From positions 840,001 to 872,000 of the forward strand of contig NZ_CP180230.1 in the NCBI RefSeq assembly GCF_047555085.1: a DNA stretch of 32,000 bases, written 5' to 3'. Of this stretch, positions 5,877-32,000 are shown piece by piece; the stretch's first letter is position 1, and each line of letters begins with the position of its first letter. This stretch comes from Candidatus Saccharimonadota bacterium (lineage in GTDB: Archaea; Nanohalarchaeota; Nanosalinia; Nanosalinales; Nanosalinaceae). Both the position numbers and the translations under genes were made by a program. The notes under the pieces were generated by a model. That model saw only the letters and a list, made by a program, of their open reading frames with translations, had not been told where the DNA came from and made no database searches.

Positions 5877-5952
5877 TACAATGAGTGTTCATCCAGAAAG
5901 AACAGAGACTGAATTTAAACTATAAAACTTCACAGCGAATTCAAGAATACTG

Positions 5953-5975
5953 GAGGCCTTGAAAAGTAAGGCCTC
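5953..5975. promoter_or_regulatory. Perfect 8-bp inverted repeat (GAGGCCTT-7 nt-AAGGCCTC) 9 nt upstream of tRNA-Leu
   Basis: gaggcctt (5953-5960) and aaggcctc (5968-5975) are exact reverse complements separated by gaaaagt. Each arm carries one AGGCCT site. Confidence 0.5.
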
Positions 5976-5983
5976 TATACCTA

Positions 5984-6066
5984 GCCGGGGTAGCCAAGTG
6001 GCCAAAGGCGACGGACTTAAGATCCGTTCCCGCAGGGGTTCCGGAGTTCAAATCTCCGCCCCGGCA
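5984..6066 (+). tRNA. tRNA-Leu (anticodon UAA), class II with long variable arm, no encoded CCA
   Basis: The cloverleaf folds by hand. Acceptor is GCCGGGG/CCCCGGC with discriminator A. D stem is GCC/GGC with an 11-nt loop. Anticodon stem is ACGGA/TCCGT with loop CTTAAGA, giving anticodon TAA and G37. The variable arm is 14 nt (tCCCgcaGGGttc). T stem is CGGAG/CTCCG with loop TTCAAAT. Total length is 83 nt. Confidence 0.88.
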
Positions 6067-6125
6067 TATACTATATAAATTTGAGCGGGATTTGATGGCA
6101 GAAGCTCCAGTAATATGCGAGCTTT

Positions 6126-6148
6126 GAGTTCAAATCTCCGCCCCGGCA
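6126..6148 (+). repeat. 23-nt exact direct repeat of the tRNA-Leu 3' end (T-arm 3' part plus acceptor 3' strand plus discriminator); orphan tRNA fragment or att-like scar
   Basis: gagttcaaatctccgccccggca at 6044-6066 is repeated exactly at 6126-6148. The second copy has no matching GCCGGGG 5' acceptor strand upstream, and its T-stem 5' strand is degenerate (ttgag instead of cggag), so it is not a functional tRNA. Confidence 0.8.
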
Positions 6149-6238
6149 AACTTCTACTCTAACTGAATCTGAAGAGAAAAATATTTACGATAGAAATATC
6201 GATAGCCAGTGCCTGACAAAAAATCTAGAAGAACTATA

Positions 6239-6586
6239 TTAGTTTCCTAACTGGGAGAGCTCCTTCTGAAGATTCTGAAGCTCGTTATGTATTTCATCTA
6301 CAGAACTGTCCGTTTCAATCTCTATATCAGAGGACTGAGGAATAGATGCAGATTCCTGTCCTTCAATCTCTGGCATCTCCATATCTATATTCTCCAGATT
6401 CTCATTCAGTTCCTGAACATTACTGTACATCATATCAAGGGCCTGTTCTTTGATTTCTCTGACTTCCTTAAGCACCTTTGAGGCCTCATTGATGTTGTTG
6501 ATTACTCTTTCGATAGATGAAAGATTATTGAGTATCTCTTCGTGGCCATCCACCCTTACGTACATCTGGTCTTCTTCAGGTGCCAT
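6239..6586 (-). CDS. Small acidic coiled-coil protein, function unknown (115 aa)
   Basis: ATG-initiated ORF with the acidic composition typical of the window and heptad-like stretches (NINEASKVLKEVREIKEQALD; DEIHNELQNLQKELSQL). An A/T box (ttatttttaa on the minus strand, nt 6611-6620) lies about 25 nt upstream of the ATG, consistent with a leaderless transcript. I recognise no family. Confidence 0.55.
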   Translation of the reverse strand: MAPEEDQMYVRVDGHEEILNNLSSIERVINNINEASKVLKEVREIKEQALDMMYSNVQELNENLENIDMEMPEIEGQESASIPQSSDIEIETDSSVDEIHNELQNLQKELSQLGN

Positions 6587-6653
6587 ACAGAGAAATTGTT
6601 TTGAGGCCTATTAAAAATAACGAGTGAGAACGACGTTAGTTGGACAAACTGAT

Positions 6654-7166
6654 CTACTTTTCCTGATAACGCCCCTCGTAGGCCTGATCTGTCTCCTCAA
6701 TTTTCTCGAATACGATGTGATTAACTCTAGCGTTCTCCTTTATCTCCACGCCTTCGCTGTTCTCAACTATCAGAAGGAATTCGCTTGTACCACGGAAGCC
6801 CGCATCCCATACACCGTTCTCGATTGTACACCCCATTCTAAGCAGGGAGCTACGCGGATATGCAAATCCGATGATATCTTCCGGCAAGTCGACTATCTCA
6901 TTTGTCTTTATCTTGTAGGCGCCTGGCTCCAGATTCCACCAGCCGTAATCATCTTCTTCATCTTTCTTAGAGGCCTCTACTTTCTCTGTCTCCGGAATCT
7001 CTCTTTCGCTGTTGGAGAAATCCAGCTTCCCTGACTCCTTGAACCTGTGGATCTCCTTAGCTGTCAGATCAAAACCGTTAGGTGTCAACTGCTTATCAAG
7101 ATCGATAAAATTTTCCACAAGGCCTTCCTCTACGGCCTCTTCCAGCTGCTCATTATTCAGTTTCAT
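6654..7166 (-). CDS. dut: dUTP diphosphatase / dCTP deaminase-superfamily protein (archaeal short form, 170 aa)
   Basis: Core motif is FAYPRSSLLRMGCTIENGVWDAGFRGTSEFLLIVEN, followed by ARVNHIVF and a C-terminal YEGRYQEK. This matches the PRSS..R.G....g.wDaGf.G pattern of the dCTP deaminase/dUTPase family. The short length fits the archaeal dUTPase type better than a bifunctional DCD-DUT. Confidence 0.7.
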   Translation of the reverse strand: MKLNNEQLEEAVEEGLVENFIDLDKQLTPNGFDLTAKEIHRFKESGKLDFSNSEREIPETEKVEASKKDEEDDYGWWNLEPGAYKIKTNEIVDLPEDIIGFAYPRSSLLRMGCTIENGVWDAGFRGTSEFLLIVENSEGVEIKENARVNHIVFEKIEETDQAYEGRYQEK

Positions 7167-7199
7167 ATAACGGTAAAATAGTGATACAGAGATAAAAAA

Positions 7200-7799: not shown

Positions 7800-7846
7800 G
7801 ATGAGAAATAAAAACTTGTATACCGGAGTTTCTACTGTGAATCATA

Positions 7847-9157: not shown

Positions 9158-9162
9158 AAAAT

Positions 9163-9184
9163 CTTTCAGAGGCCTTTCAGAGGC
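9163..9184. repeat. Perfect tandem duplication of an 11-mer (ctttcagaggc x2) in the convergent spacer between aspS and the next gene
   Basis: ctttcagaggc occupies 9163-9173 and again 9174-9184. One AGGCCT site spans the junction between the two copies, and an AGGCCC near-site follows the second copy. The two halves can also form an imperfect hairpin (agaggcc / ggcccct). Confidence 0.7.
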
Positions 9185-9208
9185 CCCTACATATCTTCTT
9201 ATTATTTC

Positions 9209-9631
9209 TCAGTTTCCGGATGTGAAAGTTTTTCTGTAGTAATGAGTTGCCAGAGATACTGCGAATATGGCATACGGGACTACGGCAGCCGCTATAGCTG
9301 AATAGATTAAAGCTAGCAGTATAGCTAATCCTCCTGCCCTTGAAGGAAGATAAAGCAGTGCCATACCTCCTATGATTATTACAGGAAGAGCTACGATAGA
9401 CAGTACAGCGGCGAGGCCTGTCCTCCTGAAATCTCTGTAATATGCCAGCGTTGAGAACAGAGGCACCAGCAATATAGCTGATACCGGAAGGATGAAAAAC
9501 TCCAGACTTGCATCCCCAGTCGCCAGATATACATAAACGGCTATACAGAAAAGTGCCAGAAAAAGTTCAAGGCCTAGAACACGTTTCTGACCAAGTTTGG
9601 AAATTATTTCTCTCATTGATGCAATTTTCAT
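9209..9631 (-). CDS. Small 4-TM membrane protein, function unknown (140 aa); paralogue of the upstream gene
   Basis: Hydrophobic ORF. It shares the YYRDFRRTGLAAVLSIVALPV and C-terminal HYYRKT signatures with the adjacent ORF (YYKGFRRTAVLSLVSAFIAPV, HYYITER). Confidence 0.6.
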   Translation of the reverse strand: MKIASMREIISKLGQKRVLGLELFLALFCIAVYVYLATGDASLEFFILPVSAILLVPLFSTLAYYRDFRRTGLAAVLSIVALPVIIIGGMALLYLPSRAGGLAILLALIYSAIAAAVVPYAIFAVSLATHYYRKTFTSGN

Positions 9632-10089: not shown

Positions 10090-10129
10090 AAGCGCGATAG
10101 CTGGCAAAATTTTCAAACCTGTGCTTTTT

Positions 10130-10684: not shown

Positions 10685-10721
10685 TCCTGATGCCTCTTAC
10701 AGGGGAAAAATTGGTTCCCTG

Positions 10722-10733
10722 TGTTTTTTAACC
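10722..10733. promoter_or_regulatory. Shared A/T box in the divergent hydrolase/smc spacer (candidate TATA element)
   Basis: tgttttttaacc ends about 26 nt upstream of the smc ATG (10757), which is the spacing expected for a leaderless archaeal transcript. The same tract read on the minus strand lies 40-49 nt upstream of the hydrolase ATG. Confidence 0.35.
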
Positions 10734-10756
10734 TGAGCCACACCATTTAGTTACAT

Positions 10757-14262: not shown

Positions 14263-14393
14263 GTTGTTAAATCACTCGTATCGCATTATAAATTTGATTA
14301 AAAATGGGCCTAGATTAACAGCAAAACCTAACAAGTTAAATAAAACAAGGATTAAAGGTGTTATACGGGGGAAACGGAAGTTTCAGTGAGAGG

Positions 14394-14412: not shown

Positions 14413-14416
14413 TTGA

Positions 14417-15130: not shown

Positions 15131-15151
15131 ATATGAGGCCTGATATGATAA

Positions 15152-15731: not shown

Positions 15732-17627
15732 ATGGAGCTAACCAGTCTTGACCTCTCTATCCTTATGGATGAGTTCCAGGAGCTTGAGGACGGCCATGTC
15801 CAGAAAGTTTATCAGAGAGGTCAGGAGTTTACTATAGAAGTCTATGTGGCTGGAGAAGGGAAGAAAAGACTTATTCTAGGTCCTGACAGAGCTTTTGTTT
15901 CAAAGTACAAGAGAGATAATCCGACAAGGCCTCCAGGTTTCTGTATGGAGCTCAGGAAGCATCTGGGGAAAATTGATTCAATCAATCAGAGAGGATTTGA
16001 CAGAATACTTGAAATAAAGAGCGGAGATCATACACTGATATGTGAACTGTTCGGCAAGGGCAACTTCATCCTTCTTGACGAAGAAAAGATCATCGGCGCA
16101 CTGAGGCAGGAAGAGTGGGCCGACAGAATCATCCATACCGGTGAGAAGTACGTCTACCCGGAGCCGACGACTGATCCCAGAGATTCAGATGATTACTTTG
16201 AACTGATTGAAGATGGAGAGATAGTGAAGGAGATCGCATCAAAGCTCAGTTTCGGAGGAACGTACGCGGAAGAAGTTCTTGCACGCGCCAATATAGAAAA
16301 AGATAGAGAAGTAAAGAAACTGGGCGACAGAGAGAAAGAAGAGATCAAATCAAAGATCGATGAGATGATCGATCCCGAAGTAAGACCTAAACTTTACCTT
16401 GAAGATGAGATACCTACAAGAGCCGCACCTTTCACGCTGGAGAAGTATGCAGACTGCAGCGAGAGAGACCTGGATACATTTTCAGAAGCTATAGACGAAT
16501 ACTACTACATAAGAAAAAAGACCGAAGAAAAGCGGAAGAAGAGAGAGGCCTACGAAGAGAAGGTAGGTACGCTTGAAAGGAAGAAGGAGCAGCAGGAGAG
16601 GAAGATTGAAGGCCTGAAGACGTCGGCCAGAGAGAAGCGCAAGAACGCAGAGAAGATTTACGAGAACTACAGAGTTCTCAGACAGCTTAAAGACAGTATA
16701 GAAGATTCCATCGAGGAAGATGGATGGGACAAGACACAGGACAAGCTGAAAGAAGCTGAGACAGAGGCCTCAGAGATGATCAATACTTTGAACGAGCAGG
16801 ACGAGTTCATCTCTGTTGATCTGGATGGAGAAAGTCTGAAGATTTATCTCTTCCAGGATCTTGAGGCCACTGCATCCCAGTACTACGATAAAGCGAAGGA
16901 ATCTGAGGAAAAGATTGAAAGCGCTGAAAAAGCTCTTGAGAACACCAGAAAAGAGCTTGAAAGTCTGGAGGAAGAGGATATTGAAGTTGAGGAAGTTATG
17001 GAAGATAAGAGTGAGAAACGGAGCAAGAAATGGTTCGAGAAGTATCGCTGGTTCTACTCTTCAGAAGACTTTCTTGTACTTGTAGGCAGAGATGCTCAAA
17101 CAAATGATATGCTTGTGAAAAAGCACATGGACTCCAGTGATCTCTACTTCCATGCTGATTTTGACGGCGCACCAAGTGTTGTAGTAAAAGATGGACAGGA
17201 TGCTGGAGAGAAAACCAGAAAGGAAGCTGCTACCGCCGCTGTAACTTTCGCAAAGACATGGAAAGCCGGCATCGGAGCGGATACAGTATACTACGTAGAT
17301 CCCGAGCAAGTGACACAGAATCCGGAGTCAGGAGAATACCTCGAGAAAGGAGCTTTTGTAATCAGAGGGGATAGAGATTACATGAGAAACGTCTCCGTTG
17401 AGGCCTTTATCGGACCTTACGAGATAGAAGAAGACGTGTACGTTCCTATGGCCGGGCCTGAAGAAGCAGTAAATAAGCACTGTGAGGCCTCTGTAGAACT
17501 GAGTCCAGGGCATACAAAGAAGTCTGATATCGCGAAGAACATACAGGACAGATTCCAGGAGTACGAACTGGATCTGGACTACATTATACGCGCTATGCCT
17601 CCAGGAGAGTCCAGCCTGGAGTCCTGA
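15732..17627 (+). CDS. NFACT-family protein (archaeal Rqc2/RqcH/FbpA homologue; ribosome quality control), 631 aa
   Basis: The NFACT-N region (LDLSILMDEFQELEDGHVQKVYQ...FTIEVY...LFGKGNFILLDEE) is followed by a central coiled coil. The NFACT-R/DUF814 region reads FEKYRWFYSSEDFLVLVGRDAQTNDMLVKKHMDSSDLYFHADFDGAPSVVVKDG. Confidence 0.82.
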   Translation: MELTSLDLSILMDEFQELEDGHVQKVYQRGQEFTIEVYVAGEGKKRLILGPDRAFVSKYKRDNPTRPPGFCMELRKHLGKIDSINQRGFDRILEIKSGDHTLICELFGKGNFILLDEEKIIGALRQEEWADRIIHTGEKYVYPEPTTDPRDSDDYFELIEDGEIVKEIASKLSFGGTYAEEVLARANIEKDREVKKLGDREKEEIKSKIDEMIDPEVRPKLYLEDEIPTRAAPFTLEKYADCSERDLDTFSEAIDEYYYIRKKTEEKRKKREAYEEKVGTLERKKEQQERKIEGLKTSAREKRKNAEKIYENYRVLRQLKDSIEDSIEEDGWDKTQDKLKEAETEASEMINTLNEQDEFISVDLDGESLKIYLFQDLEATASQYYDKAKESEEKIESAEKALENTRKELESLEEEDIEVEEVMEDKSEKRSKKWFEKYRWFYSSEDFLVLVGRDAQTNDMLVKKHMDSSDLYFHADFDGAPSVVVKDGQDAGEKTRKEAATAAVTFAKTWKAGIGADTVYYVDPEQVTQNPESGEYLEKGAFVIRGDRDYMRNVSVEAFIGPYEIEEDVYVPMAGPEEAVNKHCEASVELSPGHTKKSDIAKNIQDRFQEYELDLDYIIRAMPPGESSLES

Positions 17628-17630
17628 GGC

Positions 17631-18062
17631 CTATAGTTCTATATCCAGGCCTTCATTTTCATATAGAGCCCTGTTTCTGAACAGAAATCCTGCATAACCT
17701 GTGTATACTCCTATAGCTGCTGCTGAAGCTACAGGTACAGGAAGTATCAGGCCTTGAGATAACAGATAATACATTATTACTGTCGCTGGCGTCATAGCCG
17801 AGACTAGAACAAGTAATATATCAATTAATAGGCCCGTCCATCCTCTTGCATCCATGTATTTATCTAAAGGAATACTTCCTTCTGGAACATTCAGGAAGTA
17901 CCATGTAAGCGGCACAGTAATGACTGTTGCCGTGAATGCTGCGACAGACCACGGCATAAGCCTTGCGGCAACAAGAGGAAGAAGAAGGAAAGATGCTGTG
18001 CCCGCCATCAGGCCTATGAAAATCATCTCCAGAGCCCTTTTGATATCAAAAACAATATTCAT
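17631..18062 (-). CDS. Membrane protein, function unknown (143 aa)
   Basis: Four hydrophobic segments and an ATG start. Its stop is only 3 nt from the convergent NFACT stop. Confidence 0.5.
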   Translation of the reverse strand: MNIVFDIKRALEMIFIGLMAGTASFLLLPLVAARLMPWSVAAFTATVITVPLTWYFLNVPEGSIPLDKYMDARGWTGLLIDILLVLVSAMTPATVIMYYLLSQGLILPVPVASAAAIGVYTGYAGFLFRNRALYENEGLDIEL

Positions 18063-18101: not shown

Positions 18102-19043
18102 CTACAGTCCCAGAATCAGAAATCCAGCTCCCGCTGTCAACGCCATAGAGAGGAAAAACGCACCTGTCCACGCCAGAACAGTCCTGGAAATCTTTCCTGT
18201 ATCAGCGTTGGACTTCCCCTCTACAAGGCCCGAACCTATCACAGAAGCAATAACAGCCTCATTGAACGATATAGGTATGCCAAAAAATATACCGATCTGA
18301 GCCAGTATAGCCGCAGTTCCAAGCGCTGCAACAGATCTCCTAGGCCCAATATTCGAGTAATCAAAACTTATAGCTCTAATAATCCTCGGCGAGTACAGCC
18401 AGGCCCCCATAAGAATCGAGAGGCCTCCCATCAACAGTAAAGCTCCTGTAGATGGAATTAGGCCTGTCAAAGGTCCTACAGCAAGGCCTACTGCAGAAGC
18501 TCCTGCTGAGTACGCAACGTAACATCCTGTTACAAGTAGTAGTATCTTTATCTTTCTCTCAGAGTTTTCCTTTGAAACATACCGTCTCAAGAGTTTTGCT
18601 ATTGCAAAGCTGAGGCCTACAGCTAGGAAAGGTATCAGTATCCAGTATCCTATCACCTTGAATATTCCCTGATACCTCAGAGGATTTCCGAAGGCGATCC
18701 CACTTCCTATAACAGCCCCTATAACTGTGAAAGCTGTTGGCATCGGATAATCTCCCAGCACACTGACGATAACGAGCAAGGCCGCTATGAAAAGTATCAA
18801 TGCCGCCTGTACAGTCGCAATCTCACCACCGATTATGCCCGAACCGACTGTCTCTGTAACTTTGGCTCCCTGAGTGAGTGCACCTATGAAAGCGAAGAAC
18901 CCAGCCAGGAATGCCGCCCTGAGTACGTTAGCCGACCTTGCGCTGTTAACAGGGCCGAAAGCAGAGGCCACAGTAGATGCACCTATCGATATACCCATGA
19001 AAACCGAGGCCGCCAGCGCTGAAACGTAAAGTAGCTCCTGCAT
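18102..19043 (-). CDS. pit: Inorganic phosphate transporter, PiT (PHO4) family, 313 aa
   Basis: Polytopic protein with the duplicated PiT signature: an N-terminal GASTVASAFGPVNSARS (GANDvAN-like) and a C-terminal ISFNEAVIASVIGSGLVEG. Confidence 0.72.
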   Translation of the reverse strand: MQELLYVSALAASVFMGISIGASTVASAFGPVNSARSANVLRAAFLAGFFAFIGALTQGAKVTETVGSGIIGGEIATVQAALILFIAALLVIVSVLGDYPMPTAFTVIGAVIGSGIAFGNPLRYQGIFKVIGYWILIPFLAVGLSFAIAKLLRRYVSKENSERKIKILLLVTGCYVAYSAGASAVGLAVGPLTGLIPSTGALLLMGGLSILMGAWLYSPRIIRAISFDYSNIGPRRSVAALGTAAILAQIGIFFGIPISFNEAVIASVIGSGLVEGKSNADTGKISRTVLAWTGAFFLSMALTAGAGFLILGL

Positions 19044-19621
19044 CAGTTATCCTCTCTGAAATTATCCTGTAACTGCTCTCTTTTCTCCTCTTCCAGAACA
19101 GAGACATCCATCTCGAACTTTCCACCTTTTCTGTCCCGTATATCTACAGAGAAATCCTCAGTATCCAGATAATACGGATTAAACCTCAGAGTAACCCAGG
19201 AATAAATCGCCTGCTCAATCCTCCTGATCAGGCCTACCACACGACTGTAAAAAGGTCTTGCAGCCTCCTCAGAGGGCTCTATAATTTCTTTATCCGGGAG
19301 TTCTTTCATAGTAGCTTTTTTGCCGGCCTCCGCCATCTTGTCCGAGGCCTGTTTAAGATCTTCTTTCACTCCGTTGGTCTTTTCCTCAAGTTTTTTCTCG
19401 TGAGAAACTGCTTCATCGACAGTCTTCCTCTTGACATCACTCTCAGATTCCTCCAGTTTAGGCCTCCAGTCTCCGAATTTTTCGATAGAATCTTCTGCGG
19501 TATCTTCCAGGGCCTCTTCGACCTGTTCACCGAACTCTGCGATCTCCTTCCAGTTACCTTCTTTCTTTACACCAGAGTTAGTCTGTTCTACTTCTTTGTC
19601 CTGTTCAGTTTTATCCGGCAT
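19043..19621 (-). CDS. Acidic soluble protein of unknown function (192 aa), translationally coupled to pit
   Basis: Its TGA overlaps the pit ATG (TGATG at 19041-19045). The N-terminal half is highly charged. The C-terminal region is more ordered (RPFYSRVVGLIRRIEQAIYSWVTLRFNPYYLDTEDFSVDIRDRKGGKFEMDVSVL). A TTTTTAAA box (minus strand, about nt 19655-19663) lies about 35-42 nt upstream of the ATG. Confidence 0.55.
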   Translation of the reverse strand: MPDKTEQDKEVEQTNSGVKKEGNWKEIAEFGEQVEEALEDTAEDSIEKFGDWRPKLEESESDVKRKTVDEAVSHEKKLEEKTNGVKEDLKQASDKMAEAGKKATMKELPDKEIIEPSEEAARPFYSRVVGLIRRIEQAIYSWVTLRFNPYYLDTEDFSVDIRDRKGGKFEMDVSVLEEEKREQLQDNFREDN

Positions 19622-19695
19622 GGCGCGCCCTATACTGTTTCAAGGAGGTAGATGGTTTAAAAAGGGTTACGTTGTCCAGGCCTCCTGAAAAAATC

Positions 19696-20442: not shown

Positions 20443-20520
20443 AGCTAGAACCTCGAAGAGAAAGGTTTTGAATCTTGCCTAAAAGGCCTCACCACGGAAC
20501 TTTTAACCTTCCATCATGAA

Positions 20521-21180: not shown

Positions 21181-21183
21181 AAA

Positions 21184-21597
21184 ATGAGTGAAAAATTAGT
21201 TCCTGCCGTCAAGGCACTGATAGAAAGAGACGGAAAACTGCTCGTTCTGAAGACAGAGGCCTCTGGAGAAACTTACTACGTTCTTCCCGGCGGAAAAATC
21301 GAGTACGGTGAGTCATCTGAAGAGGCCTTGCAGCGGGAGATCAAAGAGGAGTTATCCTGCAGTATTGAAATCGGAGATTCTGTCGGAAACTATCATTTCT
21401 TTACAGGGCCTGAAGGAGATGGAAGACAGGTAGTTTTGACTGTCTTCAGAGGATCAATCGGCGATCAGGATATAGATATATCCGGAAATCCTGCGGATGA
21501 AGGAATAATCGAGTATCTGTGGATGAGGCCTGAAGAACTGATTGAGGAAAGCAGTAACGATTCTCTGAAAGAACTGATCAGAAACTACTCTGACTGA
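21184..21597 (+). CDS. NUDIX hydrolase (137 aa)
   Basis: The Nudix box is GGKIEYGESSEEALQREIKEELS (G-x5-E-x7-REUxEExGU). A GGAGGAG SD-like element lies 6 nt upstream of the ATG. Confidence 0.85.
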   Translation: MSEKLVPAVKALIERDGKLLVLKTEASGETYYVLPGGKIEYGESSEEALQREIKEELSCSIEIGDSVGNYHFFTGPEGDGRQVVLTVFRGSIGDQDIDISGNPADEGIIEYLWMRPEELIEESSNDSLKELIRNYSD

Positions 21598-22900: not shown

Positions 22901-23130
22901 CGGTACATCTCATCGAAGTCGAATTCATCCCATTCCATTTCTCCTCTTTCAAGGCAGTGTTCGTAGTGGCTGTCGGTAAGAAGGGCTGTCATAACGTACT
23001 CGAAGTCGTACATTGAACTCAGAGGCCTTGACATATGGATGGATTCAGTCTCTTTTTCCCCTGTAATCCTCTGATCTACTGAGAGGTCTCCTAGCCGTTC
23101 CTCATTAAGGTATAGCGTGTTTTCTTCCAC
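22897..23130 (-). CDS. Small acidic hypothetical protein (77 aa, GTG start)
   Basis: This is the only ORF filling an otherwise 297-nt gap in a very compact region. Its composition is acidic like the rest of the proteome. I recognise no family. Its 3' end overlaps the glyA stop by 4 nt. Confidence 0.35.
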
Positions 23131-23189: not shown

Positions 23190-23197
23190 ACTAATTC

Positions 23198-24286: not shown

Positions 24287-24292
24287 TTTTTT

Positions 24293-24766
24293 GTGGAGAA
24301 AATTATTATAGTTGCGTTCGATGAGGAAAGAGCTATAGGGAAGGACGGAGAAATTCCTTGGCATTATTCGAGCGACATGAAGCATTTCAGGGAGAAGACA
24401 ACAGGAAATACAGTTTTGATGGGGCGTAAGACTTACGAGTCTCTTCCTGAAGATTTCAGGCCTCTGCCGGATAGGAAAAATATAGTGTTGACGAGATCGG
24501 AGTTCGATGCCGATGAGAGTGTGTCTGTAGCGAACAGTCTTGATGAGGCCTATAGTATTGCGGAGGACCAGGAAGGAGATCTGTTTATCGCCGGAGGTTC
24601 CTCGATATACCGTCAGACTCTGGATGATGCTGATAGAGCCATTATAACGCGCATACCCGGAAAACATGATGGAGATACGTTCTTCCCTGAGCTTGGTGAA
24701 GACTGGATTAAATCTTCAGAGAGGGAGGAAAAAGGACTCCAGTTCCAGGAGTTTACCAGAAGTTAA
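24293..24766 (+). CDS. folA: Dihydrofolate reductase
   Basis: IIIVAFDEERAIGKDGEIPWHYSSDMKHFREKTTGNTVLMGRKTYESLPEDFRPLPDRKNIVLTR...LFIAGGSSIYRQ. The start is GTG with a GGAGTGA SD-like element 7 nt upstream, inside the end of thyA. Confidence 0.88.
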   Translation: MEKIIIVAFDEERAIGKDGEIPWHYSSDMKHFREKTTGNTVLMGRKTYESLPEDFRPLPDRKNIVLTRSEFDADESVSVANSLDEAYSIAEDQEGDLFIAGGSSIYRQTLDDADRAIITRIPGKHDGDTFFPELGEDWIKSSEREEKGLQFQEFTRS

Positions 24767-27700
24767 TTTCCAATGCTTCTCTCAAAGTGTCTGTGAACTT
24801 TCTTGATCTTATCCTCTATATCTTCAACTCCTTTGCGCGACAGGAAGTCAGAATCCCTGACTTCAGCAAGCTTTTTCTCAGCTCCTGAAAGATCTCCCTG
24901 ACTCATCCTGTCAGAGGCCTCTTCAGAGGCCTGGACTATCTCTTCATCCTCGAACATGTTGTCCAGTTTCTCCAGTTTATCCTCCGTAGACTCTTCCATG
25001 GAACTATCTTCGACAGCAGAAGGTTCTGAGGTATTTGAAACGCTTTCTCTCCTCCGGAATCCTTGTGCTCCTGAACCTGATGTCTTGAAAGAACTACCTT
25101 TATTCCCTGCTCCACTATGCCGAGCAACATATACTGCCAGGCCTGCTATAAGAGTCATAACTGTGGCTATCAGTGTATAAGGCGTCTCTTTTTCCTGCTC
25201 AGGGATACTAAACGTCTTTCTTCCAGTATAGATTTGCTCGCCGTTTTTGAGAGTTGTTTCAAGAGTATACTCTCCTGGACTTATTCCTTCTAGACTTATT
25301 GAACCGTTGTATTCTTCTCCATTGATAATCTGTACGTTCTCCACTGTTCGCACTTTATTACCCCGTACATCGTAGATAACTGTTTCAACTGTCGATTCTC
25401 CCTGTATATCTTTATTTACATCTGAGCTGTATGTGGCAGAATCATTTTGTACATCTACCTCGACTTCAGTCTCCTCTGATTCAGAGGCCAGTATTTCAAC
25501 GTTGAGAGTTGATGTAGTTGATTTAGATCCTGCTGATGCGACTACTGTTCCCGTGTATTCTCCTGGCGCAGATTGACCTGAAACAGGTATCTGTACATCT
25601 CTAGAGGCCTCTACGTCGAATGTCTCCGAGTACGAAGCGACACTGTCTAAACCTTCCGTAGATATCGAAACTTCAGCAGGTTCGGAAACAGAAAGCTCGA
25701 ATGTATAAGACGATGAGGCCTCTCTTTCAACCTGTATCTGTGCTTCCGCAGGTGATAGCTGGATATCAACCCCTCCTACAGGATCAAGTGTACCTGAGCC
25801 GTTGTTCTTTTCTGATTCATTCTCTGTGCCTTCACCGGATTCATTTCCTTCATCCGTGTCATCAGGCGGGAGGAAGCCTCCACCTCCACTTGATCCACCA
25901 CCCGAAGATCCTCCCGACCCGGATCCAGAATCCGAATCTTCATTTTCACCGGTTTCATCTTGAGTTGTGGAATCCACAGCAAGAGTATTCGTTGAGGCAT
26001 GTACAGTATTTCCTGCATAGTCCCTGATCTTGATTTCAGGCCTGTAATCCTCCAGATCTACGGATCTATTTACAGTGAAAGTCCTGGAAAAAACAACTTC
26101 ATCAACTTCCACCGGCGCTGAAATCTCAGAAACTGTTGAAACGTTTATACTGACAGATTCGATCCCTGTAGTATTGTCCGAAACATTAATATTTACTTCA
26201 AGCTTATCTCCAAGGCCTAGAGGCTCTTCAGCTCCCTCGGTAGCATTTATATAGGCCTTGTTTACTTCTGGCAGAGTATTGTCAATAGTTACGTTTTCCT
26301 CTACGGTTCCTGTATTACCAGCATCATCAGAGGCATTCAATCTGACTTTTGTTTTTCCATCATCTATTTCTGTTGTGTTCCAGGCCTCTTCATCGATTAT
26401 TTCGTTCCAGGTTTCATTTCCATACCTGTAATCTATAGAGGATATATCCTGAGAGGCCTCAAGTTTATCAGATATGTTTATGATGCCTGATAGGTTTTCT
26501 CCAAGTGCACTGATATCGAGTTCTGGAGAAGAGAGATCTATCTGGAACTCGCCTATATCGTTACGGACTATATCATTGCCATCGTAATCCTCAACATTTG
26601 ATACATGTACAGTAACGTTTTCCTCTTGAGACCGGTTAATTACCTGGAATTCTCCGGACCAGTATGTCTCGTTATCGTATGACCCCGATACATCATAATC
26701 CGGGCCTCCCTGTATATCGACATAGGCCCGTCTTGAATTGTTGACCGGCTTGCTGAAGTTTATGGTGATGCCCACGGTTCTATCTGCATCGTCTATGTTT
26801 AGCGGAGTTGAAACATTCAAGCTGTAATCTGCCTTTGGCCCTTCTGCATATGGATCTGTAGCCTGAACAGTATTGTCTACAGCGTTACCAGCTCTATCAA
26901 CCACAGTCTCTGAATCCTTGATGGCAAACTCCGCAGTATAGCTTGGATCCTCCAGAGAGACGTTAACAGTACATCTCTTCGATCCCTGACTGCATGGAAG
27001 TATATCGAAGCTTGAGGCCTGAACTGATTCCGTGATTATTTCGAAGTCAGAGGCCTCCAGTGTGGAACTATCAAGGCCTGTCTCATTATCAAATACCTGG
27101 AAGGACATCCTGGTATCGTTAAAGTATGTGCCGTTAACTAGGACAGGTCTATCTGCATCCAGATGGACTATCTCAGCCGTCTGCAGATCTGTTTGGAGGC
27201 CCGCTTTATCAAGCGCCGAGATCTCTATACTGTAGTTTCCGGATTCCAGGCCTGAGGTCTCTAGATCTACAGATCTATCCGGATTCTCTGATGTCTCCGA
27301 TACTGTTTTATCGAGTACAACGGTGCCGTCTTCTACCAGTTTTATCGTGGTTTGATTCTGATTTTTCTCTACGTAACTGTATTCAATACCTAGATTTCCA
27401 GGCTGAGTGAAGATATCCTGAGCAGGACTTTCCACGGATAAGTCCGATGGAGCAGTATTGTCTATTTCTGAAGCATAATTCTTGCTTCTGAAGTTTCCTG
27501 CATCATCTGTTGCATTCACACGGAAATCAACAGATCCCTCTGAGGCCTGAGTTGAATCCCATGATGAAGGATTGTCTACTTCAGTCCATTCAGAGCCATC
27601 ATTGAACTCATAACTCGATGAAACAGCGTCTTCTCCTATCTGTATCTCCGAAGCCAGATCTATACTGCCGGATATGTAATCAGGTAAGCTCCCCTGTATA

Positions 27701-30700
27701 CTTGGATCTACGTTATCTACTTCTATGCTTACAGAGTCTGTTCCGCTGTTTTCTACATCGTCAGTATATGTGAGCCATAGCTGTGTCTGGAATTCTGATA
27801 GAGGCGTGCTCCACTCTGTCTCGTTCTGTATGCTTGAAAGCTCTGCTATCGTCTGATTGTTTCCAGTCTGATCCTCGAAAACCCATACCACGTTTTCGAC
27901 ATCATCTTTATTGTCTCCTGAACTGTTGAGCAGCAAAGTTCCGGAAACAACTTCTCCTTCGGACAGACCTTCTACGACAGGCTGCGGCACCACAGTATCA
28001 ATCTTGAAATCCGTGGATTTGGAGGAGGCCTGGATATTTCCGGAGTCATCTGATGCGTTACCTACAGTTACTTGAGCGACTACGCCATCACTGTTGCCGA
28101 AAGTATACTCTCTGGAGAAAGTTGTGGAATTAACCCATGTGCCGGAACCGGAAGACTTTACAGAGGCCTCTTCAGAGAACTCTGCATCCGGTATTACGGA
28201 AGTTTCCATTCCCTCCGTGTAAGTCACGCTTAATTTAGCTTCCCCATCTTCAGCCACATCCTCCATACTCAACGATTTAATCTCTGGTGGCACACCATCT
28301 TCCGTAGATACACCGTACAGATCACGAGAGTTTCCTAGAGAATCTCTAGTACTGAGAACTAAATCCGGAGTATCACCTGTAGAGAACTCACTCGATTCTA
28401 TGGCCAGGCCCGAAATTTGTTCAGCATCCTGGTCAAAGCCTTCAGCATCTGCATCCAGGAAGCTAACGTAAGATGCATCCACTAGATTAAGTTCATCGCT
28501 TAATGTAACGTTTATAGCAGTAGTATTATACGTTACAGCCGAATCAACTACTGGAGGAGTGCCGTCCGGTACTGCAGAAGTATTGGATGAGTTAGGGCCT
28601 TGATTCAGGGCTATGTCGACGGCTGCAACTTTGTAACTGTAGTTAACGCCTTCTGAAGGAGGATTGTCAGTGTAAACCGAAGAATCTGTACGTCCAATCT
28701 CGGAGTAACTGCTTGAATCGTTCCTGTACACGACGTACTCATTTAGATCTCCTGTCAGAACATCGTCCCAGCTTAGATCTATAGCGCCTCCTTCTACTGC
28801 AGAGGCCTCTAAGGATGTTGGTGCATCAGGAATATCATTGTTTATCTCAACGCCATCATCATCTGTTTCAGTGTCTGACTGCCCTGAAACTGTATTTACC
28901 GTCACATTTCCACTGTATGTAACACCGTGGCTATCTCCCTCTGAGATCTGAAGAGTAGTACTGTATACTCCATCGCCTGAAGTGTCTGAGGCCTCTTTCA
29001 CTCCTCCAAATTCTCCAAAGTCAACTGTAACATTCTTTATATCGTCTATACCATTTTCTGTACTGTTCCAGGACACATTTATCACATCTCCAGGATTTGC
29101 AATTTCGTTTTCATACTTATCCTGTTCAAGGAAGGTGTATATCGCAGTAGGTTCAATTTCTACTGGAGCACTATCAACAGAGACGCTGTTATCAGTAGAG
29201 GTCTCTACAGAGTTACTTTCGATATCTGTAGCTCTCACTGCTGGACTGTAGCTCTCGATAGTTGCTGACTCATTTATCTCAAAAATACCTGTAAAGTTCC
29301 CATCGGGCTGCTCTTCCAGTTCTACGAAACCTTGAAGAGTTGTAACTTCCGAAACATTGACCTTAACGGTTTCAACCATCGTGGCATCATCAGTAGCATT
29401 CACTTCTACAGAGAAATTGTCTCCTTCATTCAGTACACCTTGTTCAGCTGCATCGTCTTCTATACGTATAACTGCTTCTTCAACAACAGGTGGCGTATTG
29501 TCAACAGTTGAAGTGACAATCAGAGAATCACTGTTTCCTGTATCATCTGTCGCATTTACTCTGAAGTCTACTTCTCCACTTGAGGCCTCTGATGAATCCC
29601 AGGAAGTCGGTATTCCTATATCAATCCATCCTGATCCATCATTGAATTCATAGTTCACTATACTTCCGTCGCCAGTGTTTTCAGCGAAATATGTGGAAAG
29701 ATCTACTGTATCTGATAGATTCTGAGCTGTAAATTCGTTTAGTGTTACTATTTCAGGCTCCTCTGTATCAACGAGGAATGAATCGCTGTCGTTCTCTAAC
29801 TGAATGCTGTTTCCGTAGTCATCGGTGACTCCAGTGATATTTACGTAGGCCTTGCGGTCTTCATCCTCATCTTTTATCTGGAACTCGCCGCTCCAGTGAG
29901 TTGAATTTAGATAGTCTCCCGAAGCAGTGTATGCTGTTTTCAGGTTGTTTATCTCTATCGATGGAGTCTTGGATGTGTTCAGTGACTCATTAAATCCAAG
30001 AGTGATGTTGACAGCGCCAGGAGAGTAAGAGTTGTTTACTGGAGTTGAAACGTTCAGTTTCATCGATTCAAGTGCGGGGCCTATAGAGTCAGTTTCTTCA
30101 AGTATGACCTCTCCATCGTTTCTGGTATTCCCAGCCAGATCTGAGATAGATGATCCTGATTTAAGGCCTGCTGTAAGCTGATCAAGATCTGTCTGTCTGT
30201 CGAGACTGACATCTACCGTACAGTTCAAGTTACCGTCACCACATCCTCCGACGGAGAAAACTGCTGAGATATCCTCTTTTATCTCGAAATCGCTGCCGTC
30301 GAAGCTGTACTCAATCCCTGCCTCATCATATACATCAAATCTGTAATCAGTAGCACCCAGTTTCCGGGAGTTATTGAGCACAGGCGCGGTATTATCTACA
30401 ACGAGAAGATTCTCCGCTGAAGTTGAGGCCTGTCTCTGAACCTTATCACTAACTTCAACCTCAACAGTATAGTTCACGCCTCCAACAAGATTTTCAAGCT
30501 GTGTGAACTTCACACCACCATCAGGATTAGATTCTGATTCCGAGATATTTCTCTTTAGACCTACCTGGCCAGAGCTATTCACAAGACGCACTACCGTCCA
30601 GTCAGGATTAACTTCCTGATAACTGTAGTTAACAGAAAAGTTCTCTGAACTCTGAAGATAATTTTTAGATACAGGAACATCAATTGAAAGATCTGAAGGC

Positions 30701-32000
30701 GAGTATCCATCTACTATAACAGCAGAGGCCTCTGAATCATTTCCTTTCTGGCCGATAGTATTCGTAAGATTCAACTCAAGATCATAGGTGCCATTAGACG
30801 GCATTTTAGACGATGAAAAAGTTCTGGAGGCCTCTGTATTTTCACCTGAAGTTAGATCACTGAAGATCTGGCTTTGAGATCCTACAGTGATATTCAGCTG
30901 ATCAGGATCATCCTCCGTGTAATTGAATAAGACTTCAAGGCTTTCTGTAGGCCTGACATATGCAGGATTTTCTCCCGTTGGCGACTTGATGTCTATCTGT
31001 GGAGGTTGCTTGACTACTTCTACAGCACCAAACTGTTCTGTAGTATTGGAGTTGCTGTTTGAAGATGTATCTGTGGCAGTGGCAGTTGCTGACTGTACGC
31101 CCGATGTCGCTGAGCTTTGTACAGTAGCATTCGTTCCATAAACGTTGCTTTCCAGCGTTCCATCCTGATCCCAGTCGTAGTTAGAAGCCTGTTCAGAAGT
31201 CATTGAGACAGATCCAAGCGAATCACCGAATCCGGAGAGGTTTGTCTCCACAGATGCAACTCCAGTTCCATCAGTCACTTTTGCAGAAACACGTACTTTC
31301 TCTCCTTCCTCCACGACGTCATCACCATCAAAATCTGTAAGGTTCTTCTCTGTTACTTCGGGCGGAACGTGATCCATATTCTGAATTATGACCCACCCCG
31401 AATCCTGAATATTTCCAGCTACATCTCTTATACTTCCTGTTATGCTGAAGTTCAGCTCCTCTGAATCAATCTTGTCTGAAAGAACTACCGTCGCATTCTC
31501 TTCATTCTCTCCTGTAGAAATACTGCTGGAGTTAACAGAGTTAATCTGGCCATAATCAACGCTGAAGGCCTCTGCTGTTATGGTAGAAGGATCAAGGCCT
31601 GTAGTATCATCCAGGAAAGATGCATTGAATGATGTGCTATTCACCTTGAATCCCTGATCAAGCGAGGGAGCTACTGTATCTTTTGTAGGTGTTTTAGATA
31701 CTGTGGAGCCCGTGTTACCTGCCTGATCTGTTGGAGTAACTTCAACTGTTATGGCTCCTTCATCAAGTCCAGAAACATCCAGACTGCCGCTGAATGTTCC
31801 TCCAGAGAACGTGAAAGTATCTGAAACAGTATTTCCGAGATCTGAAACACTGATCTGGACTTCACCGCTGTCATCATTTGTGACTGTGCCGTTTACTTTG
31901 AAATCAAGCTGTTCGCTCGAGTTAACTATGCCGTCCTCAGCAAGCGGCGTGTATATAGAGGCCTCAGGTGCAACAGTATCAACTTTGATCGTCTGTGATG
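24763..32000 (-). CDS. Giant type-I membrane-anchored cell-surface repeat protein, 5'-truncated by the window edge (at least 2411 aa visible)
   Basis: The frame stays open upstream of the track's GTG at 31644. I read every codon from 31645 to 31998 and found no stop (...VTPTDQAGNTGSTVSKTPTKDTVAPSLDQGFK-VNSTSF...). The body is made of tandem Ig-like modules bounded by VDNTAPV / VDNTPPVV / IDNTAPSD / IDNTLPEV / VDTEEPEI / IDLSSPEL / VDNVDPSI junctions. One FN3-like domain lies at about 28563-28830 (LSWDDVLTGDLNEYVVYRND...YSYKVAAVDIALNQGPNS). A Gly/Ser linker is at 25876-25935 and a single TM helix (YTLIATVMTLIAGLAVYVA) at 25123-25179. A 118-aa charged cytoplasmic tail follows, ending at the stop at 24763-24765. 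Confidence 0.88.
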   Translation of the reverse strand, partial: SQTIKVDTVAPEASIYTPLAEDGIVNSSEQLDFKVNGTVTNDDSGEVQISVSDLGNTVSDTFTFSGGTFSGSLDVSGLDEGAITVEVTPTDQAGNTGSTVSKTPTKDTVAPSLDQGFKVNSTSFNASFLDDTTGLDPSTITAEAFSVDYGQINSVNSSSISTGENEENATVVLSDKIDSEELNFSITGSIRDVAGNIQDSGWVIIQNMDHVPPEVTEKNLTDFDGDDVVEEGEKVRVSAKVTDGTGVASVETNLSGFGDSLGSVSMTSEQASNYDWDQDGTLESNVYGTNATVQSSATSGVQSATATATDTSSNSNSNTTEQFGAVEVVKQPPQIDIKSPTGENPAYVRPTESLEVLFNYTEDDPDQLNITVGSQSQIFSDLTSGENTEASRTFSSSKMPSNGTYDLELNLTNTIGQKGNDSEASAVIVDGYSPSDLSIDVPVSKNYLQSSENFSVNYSYQEVNPDWTVVRLVNSSGQVGLKRNISESESNPDGGVKFTQLENLVGGVNYTVEVEVSDKVQRQASTSAENLLVVDNTAPVLNNSRKLGATDYRFDVYDEAGIEYSFDGSDFEIKEDISAVFSVGGCGDGNLNCTVDVSLDRQTDLDQLTAGLKSGSSISDLAGNTRNDGEVILEETDSIGPALESMKLNVSTPVNNSYSPGAVNITLGFNESLNTSKTPSIEINNLKTAYTASGDYLNSTHWSGEFQIKDEDEDRKAYVNITGVTDDYGNSIQLENDSDSFLVDTEEPEIVTLNEFTAQNLSDTVDLSTYFAENTGDGSIVNYEFNDGSGWIDIGIPTSWDSSEASSGEVDFRVNATDDTGNSDSLIVTSTVDNTPPVVEEAVIRIEDDAAEQGVLNEGDNFSVEVNATDDATMVETVKVNVSEVTTLQGFVELEEQPDGNFTGIFEINESATIESYSPAVRATDIESNSVETSTDNSVSVDSAPVEIEPTAIYTFLEQDKYENEIANPGDVINVSWNSTENGIDDIKNVTVDFGEFGGVKEASDTSGDGVYSTTLQISEGDSHGVTYSGNVTVNTVSGQSDTETDDDGVEINNDIPDAPTSLEASAVEGGAIDLSWDDVLTGDLNEYVVYRNDSSSYSEIGRTDSSVYTDNPPSEGVNYSYKVAAVDIALNQGPNSSNTSAVPDGTPPVVDSAVTYNTTAINVTLSDELNLVDASYVSFLDADAEGFDQDAEQISGLAIESSEFSTGDTPDLVLSTRDSLGNSRDLYGVSTEDGVPPEIKSLSMEDVAEDGEAKLSVTYTEGMETSVIPDAEFSEEASVKSSGSGTWVNSTTFSREYTFGNSDGVVAQVTVGNASDDSGNIQASSKSTDFKIDTVVPQPVVEGLSEGEVVSGTLLLNSSGDNKDDVENVVWVFEDQTGNNQTIAELSSIQNETEWSTPLSEFQTQLWLTYTDDVENSGTDSVSIEVDNVDPSIQGSLPDYISGSIDLASEIQIGEDAVSSSYEFNDGSEWTEVDNPSSWDSTQASEGSVDFRVNATDDAGNFRSKNYASEIDNTAPSDLSVESPAQDIFTQPGNLGIEYSYVEKNQNQTTIKLVEDGTVVLDKTVSETSENPDRSVDLETSGLESGNYSIEISALDKAGLQTDLQTAEIVHLDADRPVLVNGTYFNDTRMSFQVFDNETGLDSSTLEASDFEIITESVQASSFDILPCSQGSKRCTVNVSLEDPSYTAEFAIKDSETVVDRAGNAVDNTVQATDPYAEGPKADYSLNVSTPLNIDDADRTVGITINFSKPVNNSRRAYVDIQGGPDYDVSGSYDNETYWSGEFQVINRSQEENVTVHVSNVEDYDGNDIVRNDIGEFQIDLSSPELDISALGENLSGIINISDKLEASQDISSIDYRYGNETWNEIIDEEAWNTTEIDDGKTKVRLNASDDAGNTGTVEENVTIDNTLPEVNKAYINATEGAEEPLGLGDKLEVNINVSDNTTGIESVSINVSTVSEISAPVEVDEVVFSRTFTVNRSVDLEDYRPEIKIRDYAGNTVHASTNTLAVDSTTQDETGENEDSDSGSGSGGSSGGGSSGGGGFLPPDDTDEGNESGEGTENESEKNNGSGTLDPVGGVDIQLSPAEAQIQVEREASSSYTFELSVSEPAEVSISTEGLDSVASYSETFDVEASRDVQIPVSGQSAPGEYTGTVVASAGSKSTTSTLNVEILASESEETEVEVDVQNDSATYSSDVNKDIQGESTVETVIYDVRGNKVRTVENVQIINGEEYNGSISLEGISPGEYTLETTLKNGEQIYTGRKTFSIPEQEKETPYTLIATVMTLIAGLAVYVARHSGAGNKGSSFKTSGSGAQGFRRRESVSNTSEPSAVEDSSMEESTEDKLEKLDNMFEDEEIVQASEEASDRMSQGDLSGAEKKLAEVRDSDFLSRKGVEDIEDKIKKVHRHFERSIGN

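Follow-up and report, generated by a model that had tools for sequence, protein, structure and literature searches.

The 32-kb window described here (contig NZ_CP180230.1; the window is the whole stretch of 32,000 nucleotides that was analysed) belongs to Candidatus Nanosalina sp. VS9-1 (Nanohaloarchaeota, DPANN); its 115-aa open reading frame (ORF) and its serine hydroxymethyltransferase (SHMT) are 100% identical to VS9-1 proteins. Beside SHMT, the window encodes an aspartyl/asparaginyl-tRNA synthetase, SMC, ScpA, ScpB, NFACT, a PHO4 protein, thymidylate kinase, a NUDIX protein, ThyA, dihydrofolate reductase, dCTP deaminase and two giant surface proteins. The subject of this analysis is the palindromic hexamer AGGCCT, which, with 108 copies, outnumbers every other hexamer in the window. 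A preliminary description of this DNA had counted about 104 sites between 5941 and 32000, and the exact number is indeed 104 (mean spacing 252 bp). The other four of the 108 copies lie within 1–5940, the first at 3444. AGGCCT is best read as a motif of the highly iterated palindrome (HIP) type, which is maintained by a lineage-specific, genome-wide drive. The features of the window are listed below, with the strand where a feature has one.

1–5840 (+): motif-poor island formed by the last 5.8 kb (3') of a gene for a giant surface protein, in a frame that stays open up to the window edge; sites at 3444, 3785, 4823 and 4829
5941–32000: motif-saturated segment with 104 AGGCCT (3.99 per kb) and 23 ORFs on both strands plus spacers; 94 of 126 permissive positions (peptide positions able to encode AGGCCT by synonymous choice) realised
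24763–31644 (-): second giant surface-protein gene, motif-saturated; 28 sites, 4.07 per kb
5954–5959 and 5969–5974: two intergenic sites, 30 and 15 nt upstream of tRNA-Leu
6604–6609: intergenic site between the ORFs 6239–6586 (-) and 6654–7166 (-)
9170–9175: intergenic site between the convergent aspartyl/asparaginyl-tRNA synthetase gene and ORF 9209–9631
15136–15141: intergenic site between scpA and scpB
17627–17632: site over the 3-nt spacer which separates the stop of the NFACT gene from the stop of ORF 17631–18062
19678–19683: intergenic site
20484–20489: intergenic site in the divergent spacer 20443–20520
23023–23028: intergenic site between the SHMT and thymidylate synthase genes
31959–31964: intergenic site upstream of the giant gene 24763–31644
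21254–21265: extended 12-bp palindrome CAGAGGCCTCTG
30723–30734: extended 12-bp palindrome CAGAGGCCTCTG

The 104 AGGCCT sites of the saturated segment start at the following positions.

5954, 5969, 6481, 6604, 6680, 6971, 7120, 7348, 7427, 7462, 7766, 8394, 9021, 9170, 9414, 9570
10026, 10315, 10417, 10672, 10797, 10885, 11361, 11511, 12655, 12979, 13335, 13588, 14625, 14808
15136, 15648, 15927, 16546, 16610, 16765, 17401, 17485, 17627, 17647, 17749, 18010, 18421, 18460, 18484, 18613
19230, 19345, 19460, 19678, 19700, 19821, 19977, 20484, 20571, 20700, 20763, 20886, 21257, 21323, 21526, 21681
22252, 22528, 22543, 22744, 22849, 23023, 23249, 23464, 24051, 24139, 24176, 24458, 24546, 24915, 24927, 25139
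25605, 25716, 26038, 26213, 26253, 26382, 26454, 27015, 27051, 27074, 27248, 27543, 28026, 28164
28803, 28989, 29583, 29847, 30164, 30426, 30726, 30828, 30949, 31566, 31595, 31959

The two copies of the 12-mer lie exactly where they had been reported, and the individual sites quoted earlier for the three reading frames are correct. The intergenic examples are likewise real sites; two of their positions, 19679 and 20475, were wrong, the true starts being 19678 and 20484.

Excess of AGGCCT at the level of DNA

The base composition of the window predicts 6.1 copies of AGGCCT and a first-order Markov model 7.1, while 20.6 and 48 copies are expected from second-order and third-order models. In 100 dinucleotide-preserving shuffles of the window, 7.12 ± 2.41 copies with a maximum of 14 were obtained, compared to the 108 copies observed. 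A maximal-order Markov model was uninformative (expected 100, ratio of observed to expected copies near 1), because the pentamers AGGCC and GGCCT hold the excess themselves; lower-order models, shuffles and related genomes were used instead. Fold changes of words were measured against 191 kb of relatives in which the motif is not enriched. Among the 64 palindromic hexamers AGGCCT is the sole outlier (15-fold in the window), and the runner-up reached 3.5-fold on 18 copies. The counts of the flank variants within 5941–32000 agree with those given before (GGGCCT and AGGCCC 30, TGGCCT and AGGCCA 16, CGGCCT and AGGCCG 12). The share of GGCC tetramers flanked by A and T had been put at two thirds and amounts to 57% (104 of 183).

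For the coding tests, 24 ORFs were defined from the ORF list and Pfam. They contain 98 of the 108 copies, with 9, 50 and 39 sites in frames 0, 1 and 2, respectively. Half of these genic sites fall in frame 1, where they encode [Glu/Gln/Lys]-Ala-x, and 21 encode Glu-Ala-Ser, as would be expected if the motif were a by-product of amino acid, codon or codon-pair preference (Glu-Ala-Ser, x-Gly-Leu, Arg-Pro). The shuffled genes speak against this. When synonymous codons were shuffled within the 24 ORFs, so that proteins and codon usage were kept (500 runs), 14.7 ± 3.4 sites with a maximum of 25 were found instead of 98, and shuffling the order of codons gave 7.3 ± 2.7. The non-coding DNA (1,836 nt) is equally rich in the motif, with ten sites wholly or partly outside ORFs, a density of approximately 5 per kb; nine of them are wholly intergenic, where about 0.4 would be expected. 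Among the 1,656 fully non-coding hexamer windows, 9 exact, 6 one-mismatch and 34 two-mismatch words were present, whereas the chance ratio is 1:18:135. Furthermore, orthologous proteins of relatives hold the same peptides without AGGCCT.

The excess thus resides in the DNA and is independent of peptide or codon preference, since it is not reproduced by synonymous shuffling and since the non-coding DNA is rich in sites. This had been proposed in the preliminary description, which had named codon-shuffled genes as the control for its claim that the enrichment acts on DNA and not on protein.

No longer unit is repeated together with the hexamer. A G precedes the site in 43% of the copies, and all other flanking positions contain less than 0.1 bit of information. 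The word GAGGCCTC (25 of 108 copies) was considered as a longer consensus and was rejected; its frequency is roughly what the flank frequencies predict when multiplied, and only the G at position -1 stands out. A regular spacing is contradicted by the distances between sites, which fit an exponential distribution (Kolmogorov-Smirnov p = 0.24, coefficient of variation 0.85) and are indistinguishable from random. Because the flanks are nearly uninformative and the spacing is random, neither a longer repeat unit nor a phasing is present. Small dispersed repeats such as repetitive extragenic palindromes or miniature inverted-repeat transposable elements do not match either, as the flanks are not conserved and 98 of the 108 copies reside in ORFs and not mostly outside genes. 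With shuffles, non-coding DNA, orthologues and flanks all contradicting it, an origin of the motif as a coding by-product or a repeat element can practically be dismissed.

The word GAGGCCTC also occurs in two polyomavirus-like sequences of IMG/VR (L118 and L062), where it arises from the T-antigen GAGGC repeats at the origin and is unrelated. When viral contigs were scanned for three clustered AGGCCT, the matches were tandem repeats, T-antigen sites of polyomaviruses (GAGGC) and an AT-rich phage repeat without relation to the motif; all were discarded.

The permissive peptides are Arg-Pro, [Glu/Lys/Gln]-Ala-[Ser/Phe/Leu/Tyr/Trp/Cys], and Gly-Leu after any codon ending in A. Outside the first gene, 75% of the permissive positions are written as AGGCCT, and Glu-Ala-Ser is realised in 21 of 21 cases. 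Orthologous segments of enriched relatives realise 51–71% of such positions and those of other relatives 0–12%. Over all loci the values are 40–78% and 2–14%, respectively, when the mosaic loci L155, L172 and L173 and the 1.8-kb fragment L033 are set aside. The calculated odds ratio of realisation between the window and relatives without the trait is approximately 40.

Beside the choice of codons, the peptides themselves are affected. The 126 permissive tripeptides of the window exceed the number in amino acid shuffles (70.3 ± 7.8) 1.8-fold. Six of seven enriched loci showed an excess of 1.4- to 2.2-fold (z 3.5–10), and the shortest locus a ratio of 1.2, which is not significant; ten non-enriched loci gave ratios of 0.96–1.23. 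In alignments with non-enriched orthologues, 249 positions are permissive in the window only and 140 in the relative only, compared to 194 and 227, respectively, in alignments with enriched orthologues. The giant gene 24763–31644, whose codon usage is typical of the genome, possesses 35 permissive positions where amino acid shuffles predict about 14. The drive is strong enough to alter proteins, because permissive tripeptides are in excess in enriched loci and this excess is absent from non-enriched ones.

Distribution of the motif among related nanohaloarchaea

Relatives were fetched through SHMT and are Nanohaloarchaeota with the same gene order. Their motif densities and saturation, i.e. 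the fraction of permissive positions realised, are given below.

Clade A: the window, L007 and L155 (NHA29, Nanosalinaceae, PMC9765267) and L016; 2.4–4.3 per kb (L155 1.2); saturation 0.57–0.73 (L155 0.38)
Clade B: L021 (= L031), L023 and L024; 4.4–5.1 per kb; saturation 0.77–0.78
Clade C: L004 (CP046106, M3_22), L025 and L169 (CP107255, the cultivated Ca. Nanohalovita haloferacivicina BNXNv); 1.8–2.6 per kb; saturation 0.40–0.59
Short enriched loci, not in the tree: L009 and L020; 2.45–3.75 per kb; saturation 0.44–0.61
14 loci of other lineages, including Nanosalina J07AB43 and Nanohalobium constans LC1Nh: 0.07–0.33 per kb; saturation 0.02–0.14

The trait is close to bimodal, and enriched and poor clades are interleaved; the low density of L155 is due to its motif-free giant gene. 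Four proteins were concatenated for a neighbour-joining tree. In it, clade A falls within clades without the motif, and clades B and C group together. Judged by this topology, at least two gains, or one gain and several losses, would be implied.

Four-fold degenerate sites are saturated in every pair of genomes (identity 0.33–0.40). Nevertheless, 37–54% of the window sites have AGGCCT at the same position in enriched relatives and 0–10% in others. Since synonymous sites are otherwise saturated, the shared positions reflect continuing maintenance in each lineage and not inheritance. Orthologous positions in relatives differ from the sites by substitutions. The direction of these substitutions was sought in three-way alignments of the window, L016 and L007, which are unusable because of the saturation of synonymous sites between all pairs.

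Compared to the non-enriched relatives, AGGCCT is enriched 16-, 20- and 8.9-fold in the three clades (16- to 20-fold in clades A and B), and no other palindromic hexamer exceeds 3.5-fold. Clades A and B also contain AGGCCC/GGGCCT 3- to 4.7-fold more often, other variants with one matching flank 1.1- to 1.9-fold, and GGCC lacking both flanks at about the level of the relatives. Words with one inner mismatch are found at 0.4–1.1 times the reference in these two clades and at 0.4–1.2 times over all enriched clades. The recognition is different in clade C, which raises GGCC in general (approximately 8 per kb; one-flank words 3- to 7.5-fold, no-flank words 1- to 5-fold) with only a moderate preference for A and T as flanks. 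The opposite sign was met in L170 (Logan SRR16248206), where GGCC is avoided (9 copies in 21 kb at 49% G+C, ratio of observed to expected 0.16), a pattern like that expected under a GGCC-specific restriction system. Restriction-site avoidance would have the sign seen in L170, and the window shows the reverse.

Some other words also deviate in clades A and B (window, L007, L016, L021, L023 and L024): words with GGT/ACC (GGGT, GGTT, TGGT, GGTC), CTAG, CGCG and GCGC are found at 0.5–0.7 times and GATC at 1.5 times the level of non-enriched relatives. Among the sequences retrieved, L001 (JBLGBK010000002.1) is titled as a metagenome-assembled genome of the bacterium Colwellia polaris; it has the nanohaloarchaeal gene order and encodes 61–86% identical proteins, so that its title is probably a binning or labelling error.

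Giant surface-protein genes differ from their surroundings in motif content. Gene 1–5840 contains 0.69 sites per kb compared to 4 elsewhere. It offers seven permissive positions (10 expected from composition) and realises four of them; the idea that this gene (81–5840) escapes the drive was therefore rejected, as its shortage lies in permissive peptides. The orthologue in NHA29 (L155:1974–11285, 53% identity), which also adjoins tRNA-Leu, contains no AGGCCT in 9.3 kb and realises 0 of 18 permissive positions, and the 2.5 kb flanking it hold 14 sites (5.6 per kb). Codon usage is atypical in both orthologues, which are rich in codons ending in A.

The reverse situation was detected in L172 and L173, whose core genes are motif-poor (3 of 35 positions realised). 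In these loci a gene for a 4,065-aa surface protein (L172:4921–11472, L173:7375–11352) realises 9 of 14 permissive positions, and the 78% identical orthologue in L001 (L001:15216–21281) 3 of 12. At the sites of L172, L001 has AGGCTT twice and AGGTCT once. This suggests a transfer of the gene from a motif-rich donor, which was followed by decay in L001.

As islands of opposite motif state occur in both directions, giant surface-protein genes most likely move between motif-rich and motif-poor lineages, and this transfer appears to have occurred both ways irrespective of motif content. Judging from these islands, the motif would accumulate slowly in resident DNA and decay after transfer out, partly by C-to-T changes.

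Two further observations concern gene exchange in the window. The last 22 nt of tRNA-Leu(TAA) (5984–6066) are repeated exactly at 6127–6148, 61 nt downstream of the gene; this repeat looks like the attachment-site scar of an integrative element. The pair of genes for the PHO4 transporter and a DUF5828 protein (18102–19621) encodes proteins which are 84% and 71% identical to those of M3_22 and only 63% and 41% identical to those of the otherwise closest NHA29, and has probably been exchanged horizontally as a cassette. A search among viruses for relatives of the genes for thymidylate synthase and dCTP deaminase gave no close one.

Possible causes of the enrichment

The data require a heritable, lineage-specific and genome-wide force with a recognition like that of a restriction enzyme, which acts through point substitutions with an approximately 40-fold bias at the positions open to it. 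The recognition resembles that of a type II restriction-modification module: AGGCCT is a StuI site with a HaeIII core, and because its specificity and sign change among sister lineages, enzymes of the restriction-modification type are pointed to. The most likely cause, to which an even chance is given, is a repair bias linked to modification, in which a solitary methyltransferase marks the site. A process of this kind would act on the whole chromosome as DNA, whatever the strand, the frame or the coding status. Single-base substitutions would convert near-matches into AGGCCT, which would then be retained. A putative solitary, sequence-specific DNA cytosine methyltransferase of the StuI or HaeIII type might mark the site, and mismatch repair in or beside it might favour the strand with the methylated or cognate site. 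The bias could work as a ratchet, as proposed by Elhai for HIP, or as a correction of T:G to C:G in the context of the site. The enrichment itself may be a by-product without a function of its own. It is likely that this drive is slow relative to the exchange of giant surface genes, so that recent imports would stand out as motif-free islands. An argument for a repair bias is its independence of population size, which suits a symbiont. Further arguments are the different specificities of the clades, the preference of one-mismatch variants for outer positions, the patchy but clade-coherent occurrence, which resembles that of the alternate HIPs of cyanobacteria (PMC4390886), and the avoidance of GGCC in a sister lineage. 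An orphan type II methyltransferase is listed for M3_22 (PMC10609329), and an enzyme specific for AGGCCT which modifies practically every site is documented in Alcanivorax (PMC12128166).

Several observations weigh against a modification-linked repair bias. The methyltransferase motifs PCQxFS and [DNS]PP[YFW] were not found in the ORFs of the window and of 33 relative loci; the only match, DPPY in a 2,630-aa surface protein, is due to chance. Likewise, no gene for a methyltransferase, Vsr or a glycosylase was seen in the 32-kb window and the syntenic pieces of approximately 20 kb. For M3_22, a REBASE-based survey lists one orphan type II methyltransferase, which is predicted to form N4-methylcytosine, and no 5-methylcytosine (m5C) enzyme, restriction enzyme or Vsr (PMC10609329, Tables 1–2), which argues in particular against the deamination-repair variant. 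The one nanohaloarchaeal methylome published, that of SVXNc, shows only GDGCHC (PMC11001535, PMC10266531), and the description of BNXNv mentions a type III system only. The mismatch-repair model of Elhai has a ceiling of approximately 1 site per kb (PMC4390886), a quarter of the density of 4 per kb observed here. In addition, the depletion of transition neighbours described below is an ambiguous sign, and at equilibrium the spectrum of words would look alike under weak selection at each site and under a bias of mutation or repair.

A sub-threshold Pfam match of ORF 6239–6586 (-) to RE_HpaII was spurious; the ORF encodes the conserved 115-aa protein. Relatives of this protein carry the JGI annotation 'prefoldin subunit' or 'chromosome segregation ATPase'.

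A possible but less probable explanation is functional selection, in which AGGCCT would be the site of an abundant dimeric DNA-binding protein with a role in nucleoid structure, segregation, replication or global regulation, each site being under weak selection. A palindromic hexamer would suit a dimeric binder, and the word spectrum is graded like a binding-energy landscape. Positions are kept across lineages whose synonymous sites are randomised, and the density in non-coding DNA (approximately 5 per kb) is at least that in genes. However, the random spacing leaves no preferred position relative to genes. In an obligate symbiont, selection would have to hold about 4,000 sites per Mb, each with a scaled coefficient of about 3.7, at a cost paid in altered protein sequence. 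NHA29 tolerates 9.3 kb without a site, the motif is absent from close relatives that share the gene order, and we know of no candidate protein binding to AGGCCT. The preliminary description had named a nucleoid site and an uptake tag among its possible mechanisms, and neither gained support here.

The second form of the repair bias named above has to be considered separately, although it is a sub-case of the modification-linked repair bias. In this version, which the preliminary description had put first, a C5-methyltransferase specific for GGCC or AGGCCT would be coupled to a Vsr-like repair with an over-correction of T:G to C:G. Among the 136 tetramers, GGTC/GACC and GGCT/AGCC are reduced to 0.63 and 0.74 times the reference in clades A and B (ranks 4 and 12 in depletion). 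The transition neighbours AGGTCT/AGACCT and AGGCTT/AAGCCT stand at 0.6–0.7 times. The enrichment of outer-position variants matches the tolerance of Vsr at outer bases, and sites in a motif-poor genome decay to AGGCTT and AGGTCT. SVXNc is annotated with a Vsr-like endonuclease and Dcm-type enzymes, and an archaeal precedent exists in M.MthTI (GGCC) and the T/G glycosylase Mig.MthI. On the other hand, words with GGT/ACC are low in these lineages generally, and the transversion AGGGCT (0.42–0.60) is depleted as strongly as the T-variants (AGGTCT 0.60–1.0, AGGCTT 0.42–0.68), whereas AGGACT is not depleted. The effect of Vsr in E. coli is below two-fold compared to 16- to 20-fold here. M3_22 is listed with neither an m5C methyltransferase nor Vsr (PMC10609329), and this version appears improbable.

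Equally doubtful is an uptake or self-recognition tag with molecular drive, comparable to uptake signal sequences (USS) and DNA uptake sequences (DUS), which could separate the DNA of the symbiont from that of the host in a shared cytoplasm. DNA with AGGCCT would be favoured in uptake, sparing or recombination, and recombination would carry the word through the population. The secondary signs are those of uptake sequences, which in Haemophilus and Neisseria are placed in all frames, leave an imprint on peptides and are sparse in imported islands. Nanohaloarchaeal lineages exchange genes, and a density of 4 per kb compared to approximately 0.3 per kb estimated by calculation for host DNA with 65% G+C could discriminate kilobase fragments. 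Nonetheless, known uptake sequences are 9–12 nt long and non-palindromic and have a density of approximately 1 per kb, and DPANN archaea are not known to possess a competence system. A siteless gene of 9.3 kb entered a saturated genome and a motif-rich gene a motif-poor one; transfer would thus not be gated by the motif, as it occurred in both directions regardless of sites. The GGCC enriched in clade C is a 4-mer and too short for a tag.

Still less probable is that AGGCCT, modified or not, serves as a positive mark of 'self', so that imported host DNA is degraded for nucleotides and DNA dense in the mark is spared. This explanation presupposes that nanohaloarchaea have no nucleotide synthesis of their own and form cytoplasmic bridges to their haloarchaeal host. 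If a nuclease or defence system read how dense the mark is, additional sites would be selected for throughout the genome, and lineages relying on another kind of salvage or defence would be without the mark or even avoid GGCC.

Comparison with known systems

The likeness to cyanobacterial HIP1, which had been pointed out in the preliminary description, was upheld. HIP1 (GCGATCGC) is accompanied in cyanobacteria by alternate HIPs (GGCGCC, GCCGGC, GCsGC) which track particular methyltransferases, and its one-mismatch variants concentrate at the outermost positions (PMC4390886). In both cases a short, G+C-rich palindrome is over-represented by an order of magnitude, is found in all frames of genes and in spacers, has no longer repeat and arises by point substitutions. 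Both are sporadic among relatives, their one-mismatch variants favour outer positions, and hexamer-length alternates exist among cyanobacteria. For both, a cognate orphan methyltransferase is suspected and the mechanism is unproven. Four features by which a HIP is recognised, an approximately 10-fold or higher excess, dispersal, outer-position variants and a sporadic distribution, were thus found for AGGCCT. For a HIP, a methyltransferase specific for the word or its core would also be expected wherever the word abounds, and no gene for one was seen in the 32-kb window and the syntenic pieces of approximately 20 kb. It is not HIP1 proper, as the word is the StuI site AGGCCT and the organism a nanohaloarchaeon of the DPANN with a genome of approximately 1 Mb instead of a cyanobacterium. 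Furthermore, its density is approximately 4 per kb compared to 1 per kb, and clade C enriches the 4-bp core in all contexts.

Dcm and Vsr very-short-patch repair biases CCWGG-related words in E. coli by a small effect below two-fold. It is the sole experimentally grounded route by which a restriction-type word becomes over-represented, and it predicts tolerance at outer positions and loss of T-variants; the depletion of T-variants seen here is confounded. It differs in the size of the effect (16- to 20-fold here) and in that the inventory of M3_22 contains neither Vsr nor an m5C enzyme (PMC10609329).

M.MthTI and Mig.MthI resemble the proposed mechanism in coupling archaeal cytosine methylation of GGCC to the repair of the deamination product. 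M.MthTI (GGCC, m5C) and the T/G mismatch glycosylase Mig.MthI are encoded on plasmid pFV1 of Methanothermobacter thermoformicicum. They belong to a restriction-modification plasmid, and we know of no genome-wide excess of GGCC for this system.

The USS of Pasteurellaceae and the DUS of Neisseriaceae are asymmetric words of 9–12 nt which are tied to an uptake receptor and occur at a density of approximately 1 to several per kb. They share with AGGCCT the placement in all frames, the imprint on peptides, the scarcity in recent imports and a molecular drive in place of a function of the single site. AGGCCT is, in contrast, a 6-bp palindrome without an informative extension, i.e. not an asymmetric 9–12 nt word, and the transfers described above took place irrespective of motif content.

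The same recognition word is used by AboORF2079P, a StuI-type system of Alcanivorax borkumensis SK2, in which nearly all 1,674 AGGCCT are modified on both strands (AgGCcT, PMC12128166). Alcanivorax contains approximately 0.5 sites per kb together with an active nuclease; with 4 sites per kb, as here, an active cognate nuclease would hardly be compatible. In Helicobacter pylori, CCGG is over-represented at a ratio of approximately 1.4–1.5, which is unexplained, and large surveys found over-representation of restriction-type words to be rare and small (PMC4687349). H. pylori is similar in that a restriction-type palindrome is over- and not under-represented, in genomes encoding the cognate system, and differs in the extent, which is 15- to 20-fold here. 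The view that such a motif had not been described for this kind of organism agrees with the searchable literature, in which no paper linking AGGCCT to nanohaloarchaea was found.

AGGCCT is thus an archaeal counterpart of the HIP phenomenon, mechanistically unsolved like HIP1 itself and distinct from it in word, domain of life and density. It is written into most positions which the proteins tolerate, and sister lineages do without it. HIPs have lacked an explanation since the 1990s, when HIP1 was described, and comparative analysis in cyanobacteria is blunted because genomes with HIP1 are large and nearly all cyanobacteria carry it. The nanohaloarchaea are more tractable, with genomes of approximately 1 Mb, few repair genes and, in one family, clades with the motif, without it, with changed specificity and with the opposite sign. 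At least one strain carrying the motif, Nanohalovita haloferacivicina BNXNv, is cultured, which opens the phenomenon to experiment. With small genomes of both states and a cultured strain, a few complete genomes and one methylome could name the enzyme or exclude methylation.

The motif is also a sharp marker of residence time which exposes the exchange of giant surface genes, and it could aid binning and the detection of islands in hypersaline metagenomes. For the organism itself, the finding means that a drive at the level of DNA has measurably reshaped the proteome of a genome-reduced symbiont.

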